Shown: positions 4,713 to 13,215, counted from the stretch's first letter. The stretch is 64,000 nt of DNA from Escherichia coli (GCF_003019035.1 NZ_CP027447.1); one strand, 5' to 3'. Numbers and translations: made by a program. Notes: generated from the sequence alone by a model not told the origin.

Positions 4713-5009
4713 ATGACACGAAACACCGAACTCACCCGCACCGCCCTCTACCGTCTGGCCCTGCACCGTTTCGGGCCGGACGCACAGGCCCTGAAACTGA
4801 CAGAAGAGGCCGCTGAACTGGCGGCCAGTGCTGCCCGCAATCTGAACGGACAGGGCAACGAAAGTGACCTCGCGGCAGAGCTGGCAGACGTGGAAATCAT
4901 GACAGAGCAATTGCGCCTTCAGGGGATGGACCGGCTGATTGACTTCCACAAACAGAAAAAACTGGAACGTCTGGCTGCACGACTGGGCGTGATTTACACG
5001 AACGAGTAA
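4713..5009 (+). CDS. MazG-like nucleotide pyrophosphohydrolase-domain protein (putative)
   Basis: 98 aa; EEAAELA and ELADVEI motifs resemble the EExxE and ExxD helices of small MazG/NTP-PPase proteins; GAGGG RBS. Confidence 0.45.
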   Translation: MTRNTELTRTALYRLALHRFGPDAQALKLTEEAAELAASAARNLNGQGNESDLAAELADVEIMTEQLRLQGMDRLIDFHKQKKLERLAARLGVIYTNE

Positions 5010-6351: not shown

Positions 6352-6793
6352 ACAACGTCTTATCCAGCTCATTCATATTGCCCGTAATGAACTGGGTATG
6401 GATGAAGACACCTACCGCCAGATGTTACAGGGGCTGACCGGTAAAGCCTCAACCAAAGGAATGGATACCACACAACTAAACTGCGTGCTGGAATCCATGA
6501 AAAGGAAAGGCTTTCGCGTTAAGCCTGCCGGAAAAGCCAGCTCCGGTTTACCGCTGGATAACCATCCGCAGTCCAGGAAAATCCGTGCGCTATGGCTTGA
6601 AATGGCTGCTGCCGGCATTGTTCGTGACCGTTCAGAAAATGCATTAGCGCGGTGGATCAAGCGGGAAACGGGCATCAGCGCCCTGCGCTGGCTCAATACT
6701 GAACAGGCAAGCAGTGTTATTGAGAAACTGAAGAAGTGGCAGCACAGAGCTGCGGGAGTAAAACATGAGCGACCTGAATCAGTTTCGAAGTAA
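6341..6793 (+). CDS. gemA: GemA-like protein (Mu gp16 family)
   Basis: ATG 6341 with AAAGGAG RBS; N-terminus MMTKQRLIQLIHIARNELGMDEDTYRQ matches the GemA family; 3' end overlaps mor by 29 nt. Confidence 0.8.
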   Translation: MMTKQRLIQLIHIARNELGMDEDTYRQMLQGLTGKASTKGMDTTQLNCVLESMKRKGFRVKPAGKASSGLPLDNHPQSRKIRALWLEMAAAGIVRDRSENALARWIKRETGISALRWLNTEQASSVIEKLKKWQHRAAGVKHERPESVSK

Positions 6794-7163
6794 AGGGCCG
6801 GAACTCCTGGTGGAGCTGGCACAGCATACCTCTGAGACCGTTCGCGAGATTATTGATATTGAGCCCGCAATTGCCGACCAGATTGGTCAGGCCGTCGCGA
6901 ACCGAATGATGCAGGTCTGGGGCGGGCAAAACGTTTATTTCCCGATGGGCATGGTATGGAAGGTCAGTCAGCGCGACCGGGAAATCTTCAGGGAGTTTAA
7001 CGGACGCAACCACCACGAACTGGCCCGCAAGTTTGGTGTTTCGCTTCAGTGGGTCTACAGCGTGGTTAAGCGGGTCAGAAAAGAAGAACTGGATCGGATG
7101 CAGGGCAGGTTGTTTGATGAAGATCTGCCAGAGGAGACGAAAGACGTTAACAAATCCAGATAA
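6765..7163 (+). CDS. mor: Mor-like middle-operon transcriptional activator
   Basis: 132 aa; GGQNVYFP motif and C-terminal HTH resemble Mu Mor; GGGAG RBS. Confidence 0.82.
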   Translation: MSDLNQFRSKGPELLVELAQHTSETVREIIDIEPAIADQIGQAVANRMMQVWGGQNVYFPMGMVWKVSQRDREIFREFNGRNHHELARKFGVSLQWVYSVVKRVRKEELDRMQGRLFDEDLPEETKDVNKSR

Positions 7164-7205
7164 TTCCTGCTTGTTAAAGTCCTTTCAAAAATCTCCTTAT
7201 TGTAT

Positions 7206-7240
7206 AAAAGCACGGTAGACCCCTTACCGTGCTTTTTTTA
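7206..7240 (+). terminator. rho-independent terminator after mor
   Basis: Stem agcacggta / taccgtgct with 7-nt loop, followed by a T7 run (7234-7240). Confidence 0.6.
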
Positions 7241-7277
7241 TGCTCTCTCTTTAGTATTCAGGATGCAGGGAGAAAAT

Positions 7278-7910
7278 ATGTTTGACGTTTCGTTGTTAAA
7301 TCTGCCATGGGCAACACTGGTGACCCTGACCAGTGGCTATATTGGGTATTTTATTGCGAATGTGGGACTGAAGGATCACCACAAGCCCATTGAGGTGACT
7401 TTTTCTTCGCTGATTTTTGGCCTGACAGCAATGATGGCTTACCAGGCTGTTATGTGGGCAGGTCTGAATGCCTGGCTGGCAACACCACCAGCACTTCTGT
7501 GTGCCGTTACATGCGGTGCGTGGTGGCGCAGGTACGGTCGCAAATGGATGTACAGATTACTGTGGAATAATGATATTTCATGGTCTGACGATACCAGCTC
7601 AGCATGGCAGGCAATGTTTGATCAAACAGGCTTCAGCGTTACCGAGGTCAGAGTGATTCTTCGCGATGGTTCCGGTATGATGTCACGGCTGCCAGGGAAC
7701 TTTGAAGAGTGGCCTAACGGTCCGTTTACCCTGGGGAATAAAGGCGATATGGTTCTTTACGTCACGCACAGCAGCCCTTCAGGCAGTAACGAATGGGAAG
7801 AGTATAAAGGCGTGGTTGATAAGTACTGGGGAGCTCTGGCAACCTATATTCCAGCAGATCAGATTGCCAGAGTGGAGATCAGGCGCGTTCGTGCAACGAA
7901 CGATGAATGA
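7278..7910 (+). CDS. orphan membrane protein (211 aa; three N-terminal TM helices plus about 125-aa soluble C-terminal domain), function unknown
   Basis: ATG 7278 with AGGGAGA RBS 6 nt upstream; hydrophobic helices at roughly residues 8-30, 40-63 and 67-83; sits where Mu carries late activator C; no family recognised. Confidence 0.6.
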   Translation: MFDVSLLNLPWATLVTLTSGYIGYFIANVGLKDHHKPIEVTFSSLIFGLTAMMAYQAVMWAGLNAWLATPPALLCAVTCGAWWRRYGRKWMYRLLWNNDISWSDDTSSAWQAMFDQTGFSVTEVRVILRDGSGMMSRLPGNFEEWPNGPFTLGNKGDMVLYVTHSSPSGSNEWEEYKGVVDKYWGALATYIPADQIARVEIRRVRATNDE

Positions 7911-8295
7911 TGTTTATTTTTTCCCTGGGGCAGGGGCTGCCGGCATAGTGGTTTTATTGGCAGAGGAAGACGATTCTCCTTTTCTACCGGAATCGCGCTC
8001 GAACGTCACGATGTGCTTGCTTTTGGGCTTTTCTGAGTAATCCAGGCTATCATGCTTATTGTTTTGAGTAGTCATTGGAATCATCCTTTTTGTTGCGGGT
8101 CATGTTTCAGCAAACTCGATTCTAAGTTGCCAGGAAGGATGATTTCAATGCCCGACTTATCTATCGTATAGCGGAAAAGAATTTCAGTTCTGTTCACCAG
8201 AACCCATGTTAACCCACTCCAATTCGTTATTTATCTCACGGATCCCCCTTCATTTATCTCATGTCTGATCAAATCAATAATCATCATGAATGTTT

Positions 8296-8312
8296 TGTTT
8301 ATAATTGGTTGA
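8296..8312 (+). promoter_or_regulatory. putative PhoP box upstream of slyB
   Basis: TGTTTA-N5-GGTTGA direct repeat about 125 bp upstream of slyB ATG; slyB is recalled as PhoP-activated. Confidence 0.35.
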
Positions 8313-8435
8313 TCCTACTTTCATTATGATTTGCTCATATTTGGTAGAACATGTAACCATGGATTCACATATGCCATATACTTTGACCATGAGGGATGCT
8401 TGCGTGGCGTTTCATGGTGAACAGGAGATTTTTCA

Positions 8436-8903
8436 ATGATTAAACGCGTATTGGTTGTTTCAATGGTAGGTCTGTCTCTTGTCGGTTGTGTTAATAACGA
8501 CACCCTGTCAGGGGATGTTTATACCGCTTCTGAAGCGAAACAAGTACAGAATGTCAGCTATGGCACCATCGTTAACGTACGTCCGGTACAGATTCAGGGC
8601 GGTGATGATTCCAACGTTATCGGTGCAATTGGCGGTGCTGTTCTTGGTGGTTTCCTGGGGAATACTGTTGGCGGCGGAACCGGGCGTTCTCTGGCTACTG
8701 CAGCAGGCGCTGTTGCAGGTGGCGTAGCCGGTCAGGGCGTACAGAGTGCAATGAACAAAACGCAGGGTGTCGAGCTGGAAATTCGTAAAGACGATGGTAA
8801 TACCATCATGGTGGTACAGAAACAAGGCAACACTCGTTTCTCTCCGGGCCAACGTGTCGTACTGGCCAGCAATGGCAGTCAGGTGACCGTTTCCCCGCGC
8901 TAA
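8436..8903 (+). CDS. slyB: outer membrane lipoprotein SlyB
   Basis: 155 aa; lipobox LVGC and Gly-rich core match E. coli SlyB. Confidence 0.95.
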   Translation: MIKRVLVVSMVGLSLVGCVNNDTLSGDVYTASEAKQVQNVSYGTIVNVRPVQIQGGDDSNVIGAIGGAVLGGFLGNTVGGGTGRSLATAAGAVAGGVAGQGVQSAMNKTQGVELEIRKDDGNTIMVVQKQGNTRFSPGQRVVLASNGSQVTVSPR

Positions 8904-12693: not shown

Positions 12694-13215
12694 TTACTTA
12701 ATTACACCACAGGCATAGCGTTCACCGCCACCGCCCAGCGGTTTAGGTTGATCGGACATATTATCCCCGCCAACGTGGACCATCAGCGCTTTGCCTTTGA
12801 TTTCATCCAGTGATTTCAGACGAGGCGCGATGACGGCATCGGTAGCTTTGCCATCATTATTGACGACCAGTGCAGGCAGATCGCCTAAATGCCCGGCACC
12901 TTCTGGCCCTTCATGTTTACCGGTATTTTGTGGATCAAGATGCCCGCCTGCGGATTCCGCGGCGCTGGCTTTGCCATCTTTGGTGGCTGGCTGGCAGCTT
13001 CCTTTGGCATGAATATGGAAGCCATGTTCACCGGGAGGTAATGCTTTCAGATCGGGTGAGAACTCCAGACCTTTATCGGTTTCAGTAATGGTAACGCTAC
13101 CAATTGACTGCCCAACCCCTTGCGACGTGACGAGGTTCATCTCGACTTTTTCACTGGCAGCTTGTGCGCCGGTCGCAACAACCAGCGCCAGAATGGCCAG
13201 ACTAAAACGTTTCAT
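12694..13215 (-). CDS. sodC: periplasmic Cu/Zn superoxide dismutase
   Basis: Start MKRFSLAILALV (signal peptide); His-rich Cu/Zn SOD motifs; track ORF extends 17 codons upstream. Confidence 0.92.
   Translation of the reverse strand: MKRFSLAILALVVATGAQAASEKVEMNLVTSQGVGQSIGSVTITETDKGLEFSPDLKALPPGEHGFHIHAKGSCQPATKDGKASAAESAGGHLDPQNTGKHEGPEGAGHLGDLPALVVNNDGKATDAVIAPRLKSLDEIKGKALMVHVGGDNMSDQPKPLGGGGERYACGVIK

Follow-up and report, generated by a model that had tools for sequence, protein, structure and literature searches.

The window analysed here, a stretch of 64,000 nucleotides from Escherichia coli (GCF_003019035.1; NZ_CP027447.1), begins inside a Mu-like transposable prophage, and an open reading frame (ORF) at 7278-7910, immediately downstream of the prophage gene mor, encodes a membrane protein for which an undescribed phage-defence function had been proposed. 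We find that positions 7240-8160 form an optional cassette of two genes, complete in itself, which stands at the end nearest mor of a BcepMu-like transposable prophage of the complete type. The original prediction had described the ORF as single, orphan and lone; this description does not hold, since a convergent ORF of 53 codons (8075..7914) abuts its stop codon and is its conserved partner. The pair is a mobile accessory cassette, which moves as a unit among unrelated phages, integrative elements and islands. What is new is the conserved pairing of the membrane-protein gene with a tiny, proline-rich convergent gene, together with a predicted Sm-like barrel, which makes it an undescribed cassette among the accessory modules of mobile elements. 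A defence function is plausible from the context, and from anatomy and context we favour, with a probability of about 0.35, an effector-plus-gate module, in which a conditionally toxic or excluding membrane effector would be gated by the small proline-rich partner. The coordinates of the features are collected in Table 1.

The pairing is best seen from the small gene, which is represented in RefSeq by a 162-nt coding sequence for a 53-residue hypothetical protein (WP_001571575.1). An extended form of the small ORF starts at 8084, and the start at 8075 could be fixed because the ribosome-binding site (RBS) and ATG context are conserved. A convergent small ORF lies beside the homolog of the large gene in Klebsiella, Serratia, Proteus, Citrobacter and Salmonella and, at a large-protein identity of 36-45%, in Bradyrhizobium, Afipia, Mesorhizobium, Cypionkella, Aurantiacibacter and other Alphaproteobacteria, while looser proline-tailed small ORFs follow the gene of Allosphingosinicella and a gene on a plasmid-like element from Synechococcus. 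A small convergent ORF with at least three prolines in its last 12 residues accompanies the large gene at 25 of 30 loci (a count that includes a few duplicates), whereas shuffled downstream regions, used as the control, give 1.1 on average and 5 at most, and the stop-to-stop distances of the pair are mostly between -19 and +13 nt. The aligned small proteins share an N-terminal MT/S-x-K/N and a motif of the type (D/N)(Y/F)(S/T)(E/P)xPK, with the variants DYSENPKG in enterics and N[YH]xPxT, which is repeated, in Alphaproteobacteria, and they have tails such as PAAPAPGKK, PPAPLGKK or PPPSPKKK. The conservation is at the level of the protein, since E. coli uses AAA codons for the lysine tail where Bradyrhizobium uses AAG. 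A hidden Markov model (HMM) built from 24 small proteins gave 57 matches in a six-frame search of 903 kb, all 57 of them convergent with and adjoining a large gene and none elsewhere, a test which is partly circular yet produced no off-target matches. An NCBIfam search with four of the small proteins found nothing. From these comparisons, the large and the small gene are a conserved pair. A conserved third gene was considered and rejected, as the candidate, a neighbour of 156-160 residues, is common only to two Bradyrhizobiaceae loci. In these, Bradyrhizobium (L003 10802-11272) and Afipia (L030 10806-11288), the gene directly precedes the small ORF, on the same strand, in an operon-like arrangement, with a mutual identity of 52% and no Pfam match, and it was absent from the remaining contexts that we examined.

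The small protein is hydrophilic, with approximately 15% proline, 12% serine and 10% lysine and a proline-rich C-terminus ending in Lys-Lys; it is probably disordered, as AlphaFold2 (AF2) leaves it unstructured. Its sigma-70-like promoter is also present in the Klebsiella, Serratia, Citrobacter and Salmonella loci, and is bracketed by the two arms of an inverted repeat (on the minus strand, CATTGAAATCATCCTT / AAGGATGATTCCAATG); the -35 hexamer falls in the upstream arm, and the RBS and ATG of the small gene fall in the downstream one. Compensatory changes in the repeat are found in several other enterobacterial genera examined (Klebsiella, Serratia, Citrobacter, Salmonella). By analogy with IS10, for which fold-back protection from read-in transcripts has been described, the repeat could sequester the RBS in transcripts that enter from outside the element, or it could serve as an operator. 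A terminator-like hairpin farther out (8186-8204) is a possible insulator of the cassette from read-in transcription of the host. A scan of 6700-8500 against Rfam found no known RNA.

ORF calling and the terminator scan located the large ORF (ATG at 7278, stop codon at 7908-7910, plus strand), its AGGGAGA RBS and the terminator behind mor where they had been expected; the coordinates stand, and the product is counted as 210 residues instead of the 211 given before. The terminator hairpin at 7206-7239 is kept, with compensatory changes, ahead of the homologs in Serratia, Citrobacter, Salmonella, Proteus and Klebsiella. Two candidate promoters for the large gene, viz., a weak sigma-70 promoter (TAGACC, 17 nt, TATGCT; 7216-7244; 8 of 12 matches) and a Mor-dependent promoter for which the hairpin at 7206-7236 would double as the Mor site, failed the promoter scan and were rejected. 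Hydropathy, charge distribution and the AF2 model agree with the earlier description of three N-terminal transmembrane (TM) helices followed by a soluble C-terminal part of about 125 residues. The helices span approximately residues 11-27, 37-60 and 65-85, as given by both the Kyte-Doolittle peaks and AF2, with the third running on as a cytoplasmic helix to residue 97 in the AF2 model. The C-terminal ~125 residues are placed in the cytoplasm because of the basic clusters KDHHK after TM1 and RRYGRK after TM3, so that the predicted topology has the N-terminus out and the C-terminus in. In the membrane part, TM1 has a conserved GYxGY and the first cytoplasmic loop a conserved HH.

The AF2 model of the large protein, computed with 74 homologs, has a predicted local distance difference test score (pLDDT) of 94 and a predicted template modelling score (pTM) of 0.80, and in it the C-terminal domain consists of a helix followed by a small, strongly bent β-barrel. 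The model shows the N-terminal helix and strongly bent five-stranded sheet of the Sm/LSm fold, and superimposes on it. In the Foldseek comparison that had been suggested for this domain, the top-ranked matches in the PDB are not significant (E >= 0.1). A search of AFDB50 returned family members only, nearly all of them named ‘uncharacterized’, apart from one relative that bears the name of an S-2TM-beta effector and three that bear that of DUF421. Single residues conserved in the protein include H34, H35, D104, D157 and H164. The conserved motifs of the C-terminal domain are SxSD, SAW, PNGP, GDxxLYVTH, WG and TYIPA; as noted earlier from the sequence, no catalytic motif could be recognised among the conserved residues.

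At the family level, the large protein matches PHROG 12870 (function unknown) from end to end (E 6.3e-134; residues 1-210 against positions 1-210 of the 210-position profile). A search of 5.8 billion proteins gave 72 close relatives, and a search of 1.84 billion representatives gave 392 homolog clusters at E <= 0.001, with nearly all of the 150 clusters listed being full length at about 200-215 residues. Since the PHROG match is full length and there are 392 clusters of full-length homologs, sequence comparison indicates that the large gene is a real gene and not a chance ORF. The E. coli protein itself has no match in Pfam even at E <= 10, while DUF6338 (PF19865) matches 9 of 74 relatives at E <= 0.001 and 20 of the 74 at E <= 0.1; the family looks like a sister or outlying branch of DUF6338. 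Searches of NCBIfam gave only noise and a sequence-profile search of the PDB gave nothing, so that across PHROG, Pfam, NCBIfam and PDB profiles no homology to housekeeping, structural or lysis proteins, of the kind that would have spoken against the proposed defence role, was found. DUF6338 is mentioned once in the literature, outside title and abstract, and literature searches on DUF6338, on the RefSeq accessions and on defence by Mu-like prophages found nothing on the large gene.

That the cassette is optional is evident within E. coli. The gemA-mor segment of the prophage is present in 641 of 5,426 complete E. coli genomes (~12%), mostly at 95-99% identity, as against only 131 complete genomes with the large ORF; approximately 80% of the near-identical prophages (95-98% identity in gemA-mor), i.e., those of about four in five genomes, lack the large gene. 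In two such prophages, located beside ycaL and inside flgE (L016, L017), mor is the last gene and the phage end (...TCTAATCA) follows about 165 bp past the mor stop, with similarity to the window returning only in the final 40 bp. The earlier view of an accessory gene at a prophage boundary is therefore borne out. Up to three copies of the gemA-mor prophage are found per genome, at many insertion sites including the interior of flgE, and the family is apparently a transposable phage that is active and widespread in E. coli. In Mu-like prophages of Klebsiella (65% identity), Serratia (56%) and Proteus (67%) the homolog likewise follows mor near the phage end, and these prophages occupy different host sites. 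In Serratia marcescens an extra ORF of 95 residues without a Pfam match lies between mor and the cassette (L012 7690-7977), so that the prophage end region can hold further cargo.

The dispensability seen in E. coli bears on the possibility that the cassette is an auxiliary to the lytic cycle, acting in lysis timing, membrane remodelling or depolarisation and expressed by read-through, with the small gene silencing the large one in the lysogen. The large gene reads in the direction of the upstream operon, which is the early operon here and a head or tail operon elsewhere (L066, L069, L071), no strong promoter of its own was found in the scan, and the three-TM, N-out/C-in topology is that of class I holins. 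Nevertheless, transposition to many sites has taken place in the ~80% of near-identical prophages that lack the gene, the phage already possesses genes for a holin and a transglycosylase and those of a spanin region, and the cassette also occurs in islands that are not phages; we consider such a lytic role unlikely.

Homologs were also found, as had been anticipated, at variable loci, here in unrelated phages and islands and in varied positions. The pair lies between head-tail adaptor and head-closure genes in one phage context (L066), a moron-like position, after portal and head-morphogenesis genes in a second (L071) and after a distal tail gene in a third (L069), and in all phage contexts examined the large gene and the phage operon upstream of it read in the same direction. 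Elsewhere the pair adjoins a cI-like helix-turn-helix (HTH) repressor in an integrase/ParB/primase element, occurs in a resolvase/DUF6538 island, directly adjoins AbiEii at a locus with RelB/ParE close by, and adjoins Peptidase_M78 and DUF4411 at another. A genome scan with a narrower family alignment gave 11 loci; in tblastn searches, a set of 50,697 phage records contained a single distant match, on a plasmid-like record, and plasmids contained one full-length match and several remnants. A 20-kb record of a Synechococcus ‘phage’ (Ssp-JY41, PP438431.1; L008) carries a family member together with RepA, ParA and YoeB. This record also encodes a primase and an integrase and has no annotated virion genes, and by its gene content it resembles a plasmid more than a phage; 3' of the family member it has four tandem small minus-strand ORFs, all of which end in PPPKK, PPPPKR or PPPPKPKR.

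These positions are relevant to two further explanations. According to the first, the large protein would mediate non-toxic superinfection exclusion by blocking DNA entry at the inner membrane, like HK97 gp15, P22 SieA and T4 Imm, with the small protein as a modulator or co-factor. The protein is an inner-membrane protein and accessory cargo at a prophage end, its homologs have moron positions inside head and tail gene clusters, and to our knowledge the known exclusion proteins likewise lack recognisable domains. Those proteins act alone, though, whereas here a partner gene is kept across phyla; the cassette is found outside phages too, on a plasmid-like element and in islands of the chromosome; and a simple plug would not need a cytoplasmic domain that is large and conserved and has invariant H, D and G residues. 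Exclusion of this kind is possible but, on balance, doubtful. The second explanation holds that the pair is an addiction module which stabilises the mobile element and has no role in phage defence, consisting of a stable membrane toxin and a labile small protein or transcript as the antidote. The strictly conserved gene pair with abutting 3' ends, its presence beside YoeB and ParA on a plasmid-like replicon and in islands rich in toxin-antitoxin genes, and the seemingly disordered partner, which would be protease-labile, agree with it, and convergent toxin/antitoxin pairs with overlapping 3' ends are known on prophages from the type I systems of Bacillus. A transposable prophage that is unable to excise has, however, little need of addiction, and a DNA-binding domain is lacking in the small partner; truncated versions of the large gene are frequent in the databases (P0056, P0061, P0065). 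We regard pure addiction as improbable, to much the same degree as the lytic role.

The prophage itself could be understood from strain AR_0085, where a sequence identical to the large-gene region belongs to a prophage of ~37.6 kb. Its early operon reads outward (ner-like, DDE transposase, ExeA-type B, gam, gemA, mor), with mor labelled ‘Mor transcription activator family protein’ by RefSeq in the identical locus (L001) and PF08765 marking the equivalent gene in related loci, while the genes for tail, head and lysis are found past the repressor, on the other strand. We take this gene order to be a BcepMu-type and not a Mu arrangement. Because the late genes of such a layout lie beyond the repressor, no C, lysis or head genes are expected after mor. 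The earlier placement of the large gene in the slot of the Mu late activator C consequently fails; that C, lysis and morphogenesis genes are missing downstream is correct, but their absence is neither a deletion nor an oddity of the boundary, as the phage DNA ends at ~8271 and the late genes of the prophage fall outside the window.

In the alignment of the window with AR_0085, identity stops at 8271-8272 (...TGATCA), ~360 bp past the large ORF, which is the last large gene before the phage terminus, and host DNA (the slyB upstream region) lies beyond. The terminal ATTTATCTCA repeats and the termini are conserved in four genera. The AR_0085 element has inverted G(A/C)GATAAAT repeats at both ends and is bounded by a 5-bp target duplication (ATTAT); at the ends of the prophage (8229-8271 in the window; L002 ~6360-6420; L001 ~13120-13175) two such repeats stand in inverted orientation. 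Only the position after mor would favour the idea that the large gene functionally replaces C, or that the prophage is a truncated remnant. The product is a membrane protein without an HTH or any Mor/C-family match in Pfam, and the same prophage is complete in AR_0085, with its late genes divergent from the early operon, and in the window the phage terminus with its terminal repeats directly follows the cassette. Membership of the Mor/C family is rejected for want of its DNA-binding domain, and replacement of C is excluded on these grounds; we give either version next to no credence.

Three further observations concern the insertion sites and the early region. The AR_0085 element is inserted within the lysB region of a P2-like prophage. 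In the window, the prophage end lies only ~165 bp 5' of the slyB start codon (8272-8436), and the insertion may affect slyB regulation. For an ORF of 98 residues at 4713-5009, in the semi-essential early region, the annotation of a sister prophage (L017) gives the nucleoside triphosphate pyrophosphohydrolase (MazG-like) family, and the gene is a candidate for a role in the nucleotide pool or in anti-defence.

Table 1. Cassette features and flanking elements, with positions counted in the window
Feature	Position	Strand	Description and basis
Large cassette gene	7278..7910	+	210-aa inner-membrane protein; PHROG 12870, distant kin of DUF6338
Coding region of the three TM helices (predicted)	7308..7532	+	Hydropathy, charge distribution, AF2 secondary structure, conserved columns
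Coding region of the cytoplasmic C-terminal domain (predicted)	7590..7892	+	Residues ~105-205; helix, then Sm/LSm-like small β-barrel
Shine-Dalgarno sequence AGGGAGA	7267..7273	+	4 nt ahead of the large-gene ATG; direct sequence reading
Small cassette gene	7914..8075	-	53 aa (MTTQNNKHDSLDYSEKPKS...MPAAPAPGKK); convergent, stop 4 nt from the large-gene stop
Sigma-70-like promoter of the small gene	8119..8148	-	TTGAAA, 18 nt, TAGAAT; 10/12 matches; promoter scan
16-nt inverted repeat	8073..8150	.	Arms 8073-8088 and 8135-8150; 94% complementarity; repeat search
mor (Mor-family activator)	6765..7163	+	Final early-operon gene; context, outside the cassette
Intrinsic-terminator hairpin (13 bp) and T-run	7206..7239	+	Closes the early operon, ~40 nt 5' of the large ORF; terminator scan
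Terminator-like hairpin	8186..8204	-	Just inside the phage end, upstream of the small-gene promoter; terminator scan
Phage terminus	8229..8271	+	Two direct ATTTATCTCA repeats (8229-8238, 8252-8261); ends ...TGATCA at 8271

In the effector-plus-gate reading, the large protein would be the membrane effector and would assemble via its ring-prone barrel domain. Sm-like barrels usually form rings, and a ring of three-TM subunits would place 18-21 helices in the membrane; Cap15 and OptE damage membranes through assemblies of this kind. The assembled protein would then perturb the inner membrane or block something at it. The small protein would gate the large one as a ligand or antidote of the barrel domain, through convergent transcription, or by both means, and its tail presumably resembles the PxxPx(K/R) ligands of small β-barrel domains. 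Incoming phages would in consequence be excluded or their infection aborted, and behaviour like that of a toxin and its antidote would come as a by-product. As in toxin-antitoxin systems, the two neighbouring genes of the cassette occur together as a unit on mobile elements, and the presence of the cassette is optional at variable prophage loci, as is that of superinfection-exclusion and defence morons. In an AF2 model of a fusion of the two proteins, only the last ~12 residues of the small protein reach a pLDDT of 56-65, the rest remaining at 30-38, and this rise of the tail may be taken as a weak hint of docking.

Several observations weigh against this reading. The fusion model is of low confidence (pTM 0.42). 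PADLOC found no defence-family match for 11 family members, its sole match among them being to a desaturase model (E 0.015). No sigma-70 promoter ahead of the large gene passes the promoter scan, and the gene, standing behind the early-operon terminator and running in the direction of the phage operons in every phage context, might have its main expression during lytic growth and not in the lysogen. A convergent order is unusual for toxin-antitoxin pairs in which both are proteins, and three loci (L057, L062, L072) have a large gene without a recognisable partner. A more far-reaching version of the proposal, which we put forward only tentatively, is that the cassette represents an undescribed two-gene anti-phage system, of abortive-infection or exclusion type, of phages, plasmids and islands in Proteobacteria and Cyanobacteria, in which a disordered proline-rich protein binds an Sm/SH3-like barrel and controls a membrane-damaging oligomer.

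If the pair is indeed a defence or toxin-antidote module, it would be a compact addition of ~0.9 kb and two genes to the catalogue of immunity carried by phages, it would give a function to PHROG 12870 and the neighbourhood of DUF6338, and it would provide a case of a membrane effector controlled by a short linear-motif protein and not by a nucleotide signal. The insert of 7160-8100 that the original prediction planned for cloning cuts off the small-gene promoter at 8119-8148, and could produce a misleading toxicity or ‘defence’ phenotype. Whatever the function, sister prophages with and without the cassette in the ~640 sequenced E. coli genomes are natural isogenic comparisons.

Among known systems, HK97 gp15, P22 SieA and SieB, T4 Imm and phi80/T1 Cor are small membrane proteins encoded by optional inserts at prophage ends or in late operons. 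The positions of the cassette, at prophage ends and inside head and tail clusters, match theirs, but the large protein has no sequence relationship to them (no named PHROG, no Pfam match); these exclusion proteins are encoded by single genes, whereas the large gene has a conserved partner and its product a large conserved cytoplasmic domain. The Bacillus prophage systems txpA/RatA and bsrG/SR4 offer an analogy in arrangement, in that a membrane-protein gene and a small convergent unit abut or overlap at their 3' ends. Their toxins are of only 30-60 residues and their antitoxins are non-coding RNAs, whereas the membrane protein of the cassette has 210 residues with a predicted folded domain and the small unit is conserved at the protein level. 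A class I holin was also considered, since the topology fits, and was rejected: the protein, of 210 residues, has a folded domain, its gene is distant from those for the holin and the transglycosylase, and most sister prophages do not carry it. PHROG 12870 and DUF6338 are both of unknown function, so that membership of these families explains nothing.

The YetF/DUF421 proteins of the spore inner membrane have three N-terminal TM helices and an oligomerising soluble domain in ~200-230 residues (PMC10126465). The large protein resembles them in its three N-terminal TM helices and soluble domain, and three of its AFDB relatives bear the name DUF421, but the soluble part of YetF comprises two α/β subdomains (PDB identifier 3C6F) and not a β-barrel. 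This structure is not among the top structural matches of the large protein, and the Pfam scans of the family gave no DUF421 match; membership of YetF/DUF421 is rejected, given that the fold of the soluble domain differs. Three TM helices followed by an Sm-like β domain also call to mind MscS, whose middle domain has an Sm-like fold in SCOP, and a lysogenic-conversion protein which alters host physiology as an ion or solute channel or a stress sensor on an Sm-like ring, only loosely MscS-like, can be conceived. Neither a structural nor a sequence match to MscS-like channels was found, which led us to reject that class, and a physiological role of this sort is, in our estimate, quite remote.

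The closest parallel in architecture is that with the S-2TM-beta effectors Cap15 and OptE of the cyclic-oligonucleotide-based antiphage signalling system (CBASS) and Panoptes, proteins of ~200 residues with N-terminal TM helices and a compact cytoplasmic β-barrel, which sit in defence islands, oligomerise and damage the membrane (PMC12657218). The large protein is likewise an inner-membrane protein of ~200 residues with TM helices and a predicted cytoplasmic β-barrel, and the AFDB relative A0A2E2SZZ5 (26% identity, TM-score 0.83) carries the S-2TM-beta name. The family differs in having three TM helices instead of two, and in having a small proline-rich protein as the partner instead of a second-messenger synthase. 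No CD-NTase or mCpol gene was found within 6-10 kb of the large gene at the loci with Pfam-annotated neighbours, S_2TMBeta is not listed by Pfam for any of the 74 family members, and the structures of Cap15 are not among the top structural matches. Membership of Cap15/S-2TM-beta is thus rejected on the number of TM helices, the profile searches and the absence of a cyclase, and the likeness is that of an architectural analogue only. Should the small protein indeed bind an Sm/SH3-like barrel, the cassette would use gating by a protein ligand in place of the cyclic-nucleotide gating of Cap15 and OptE.

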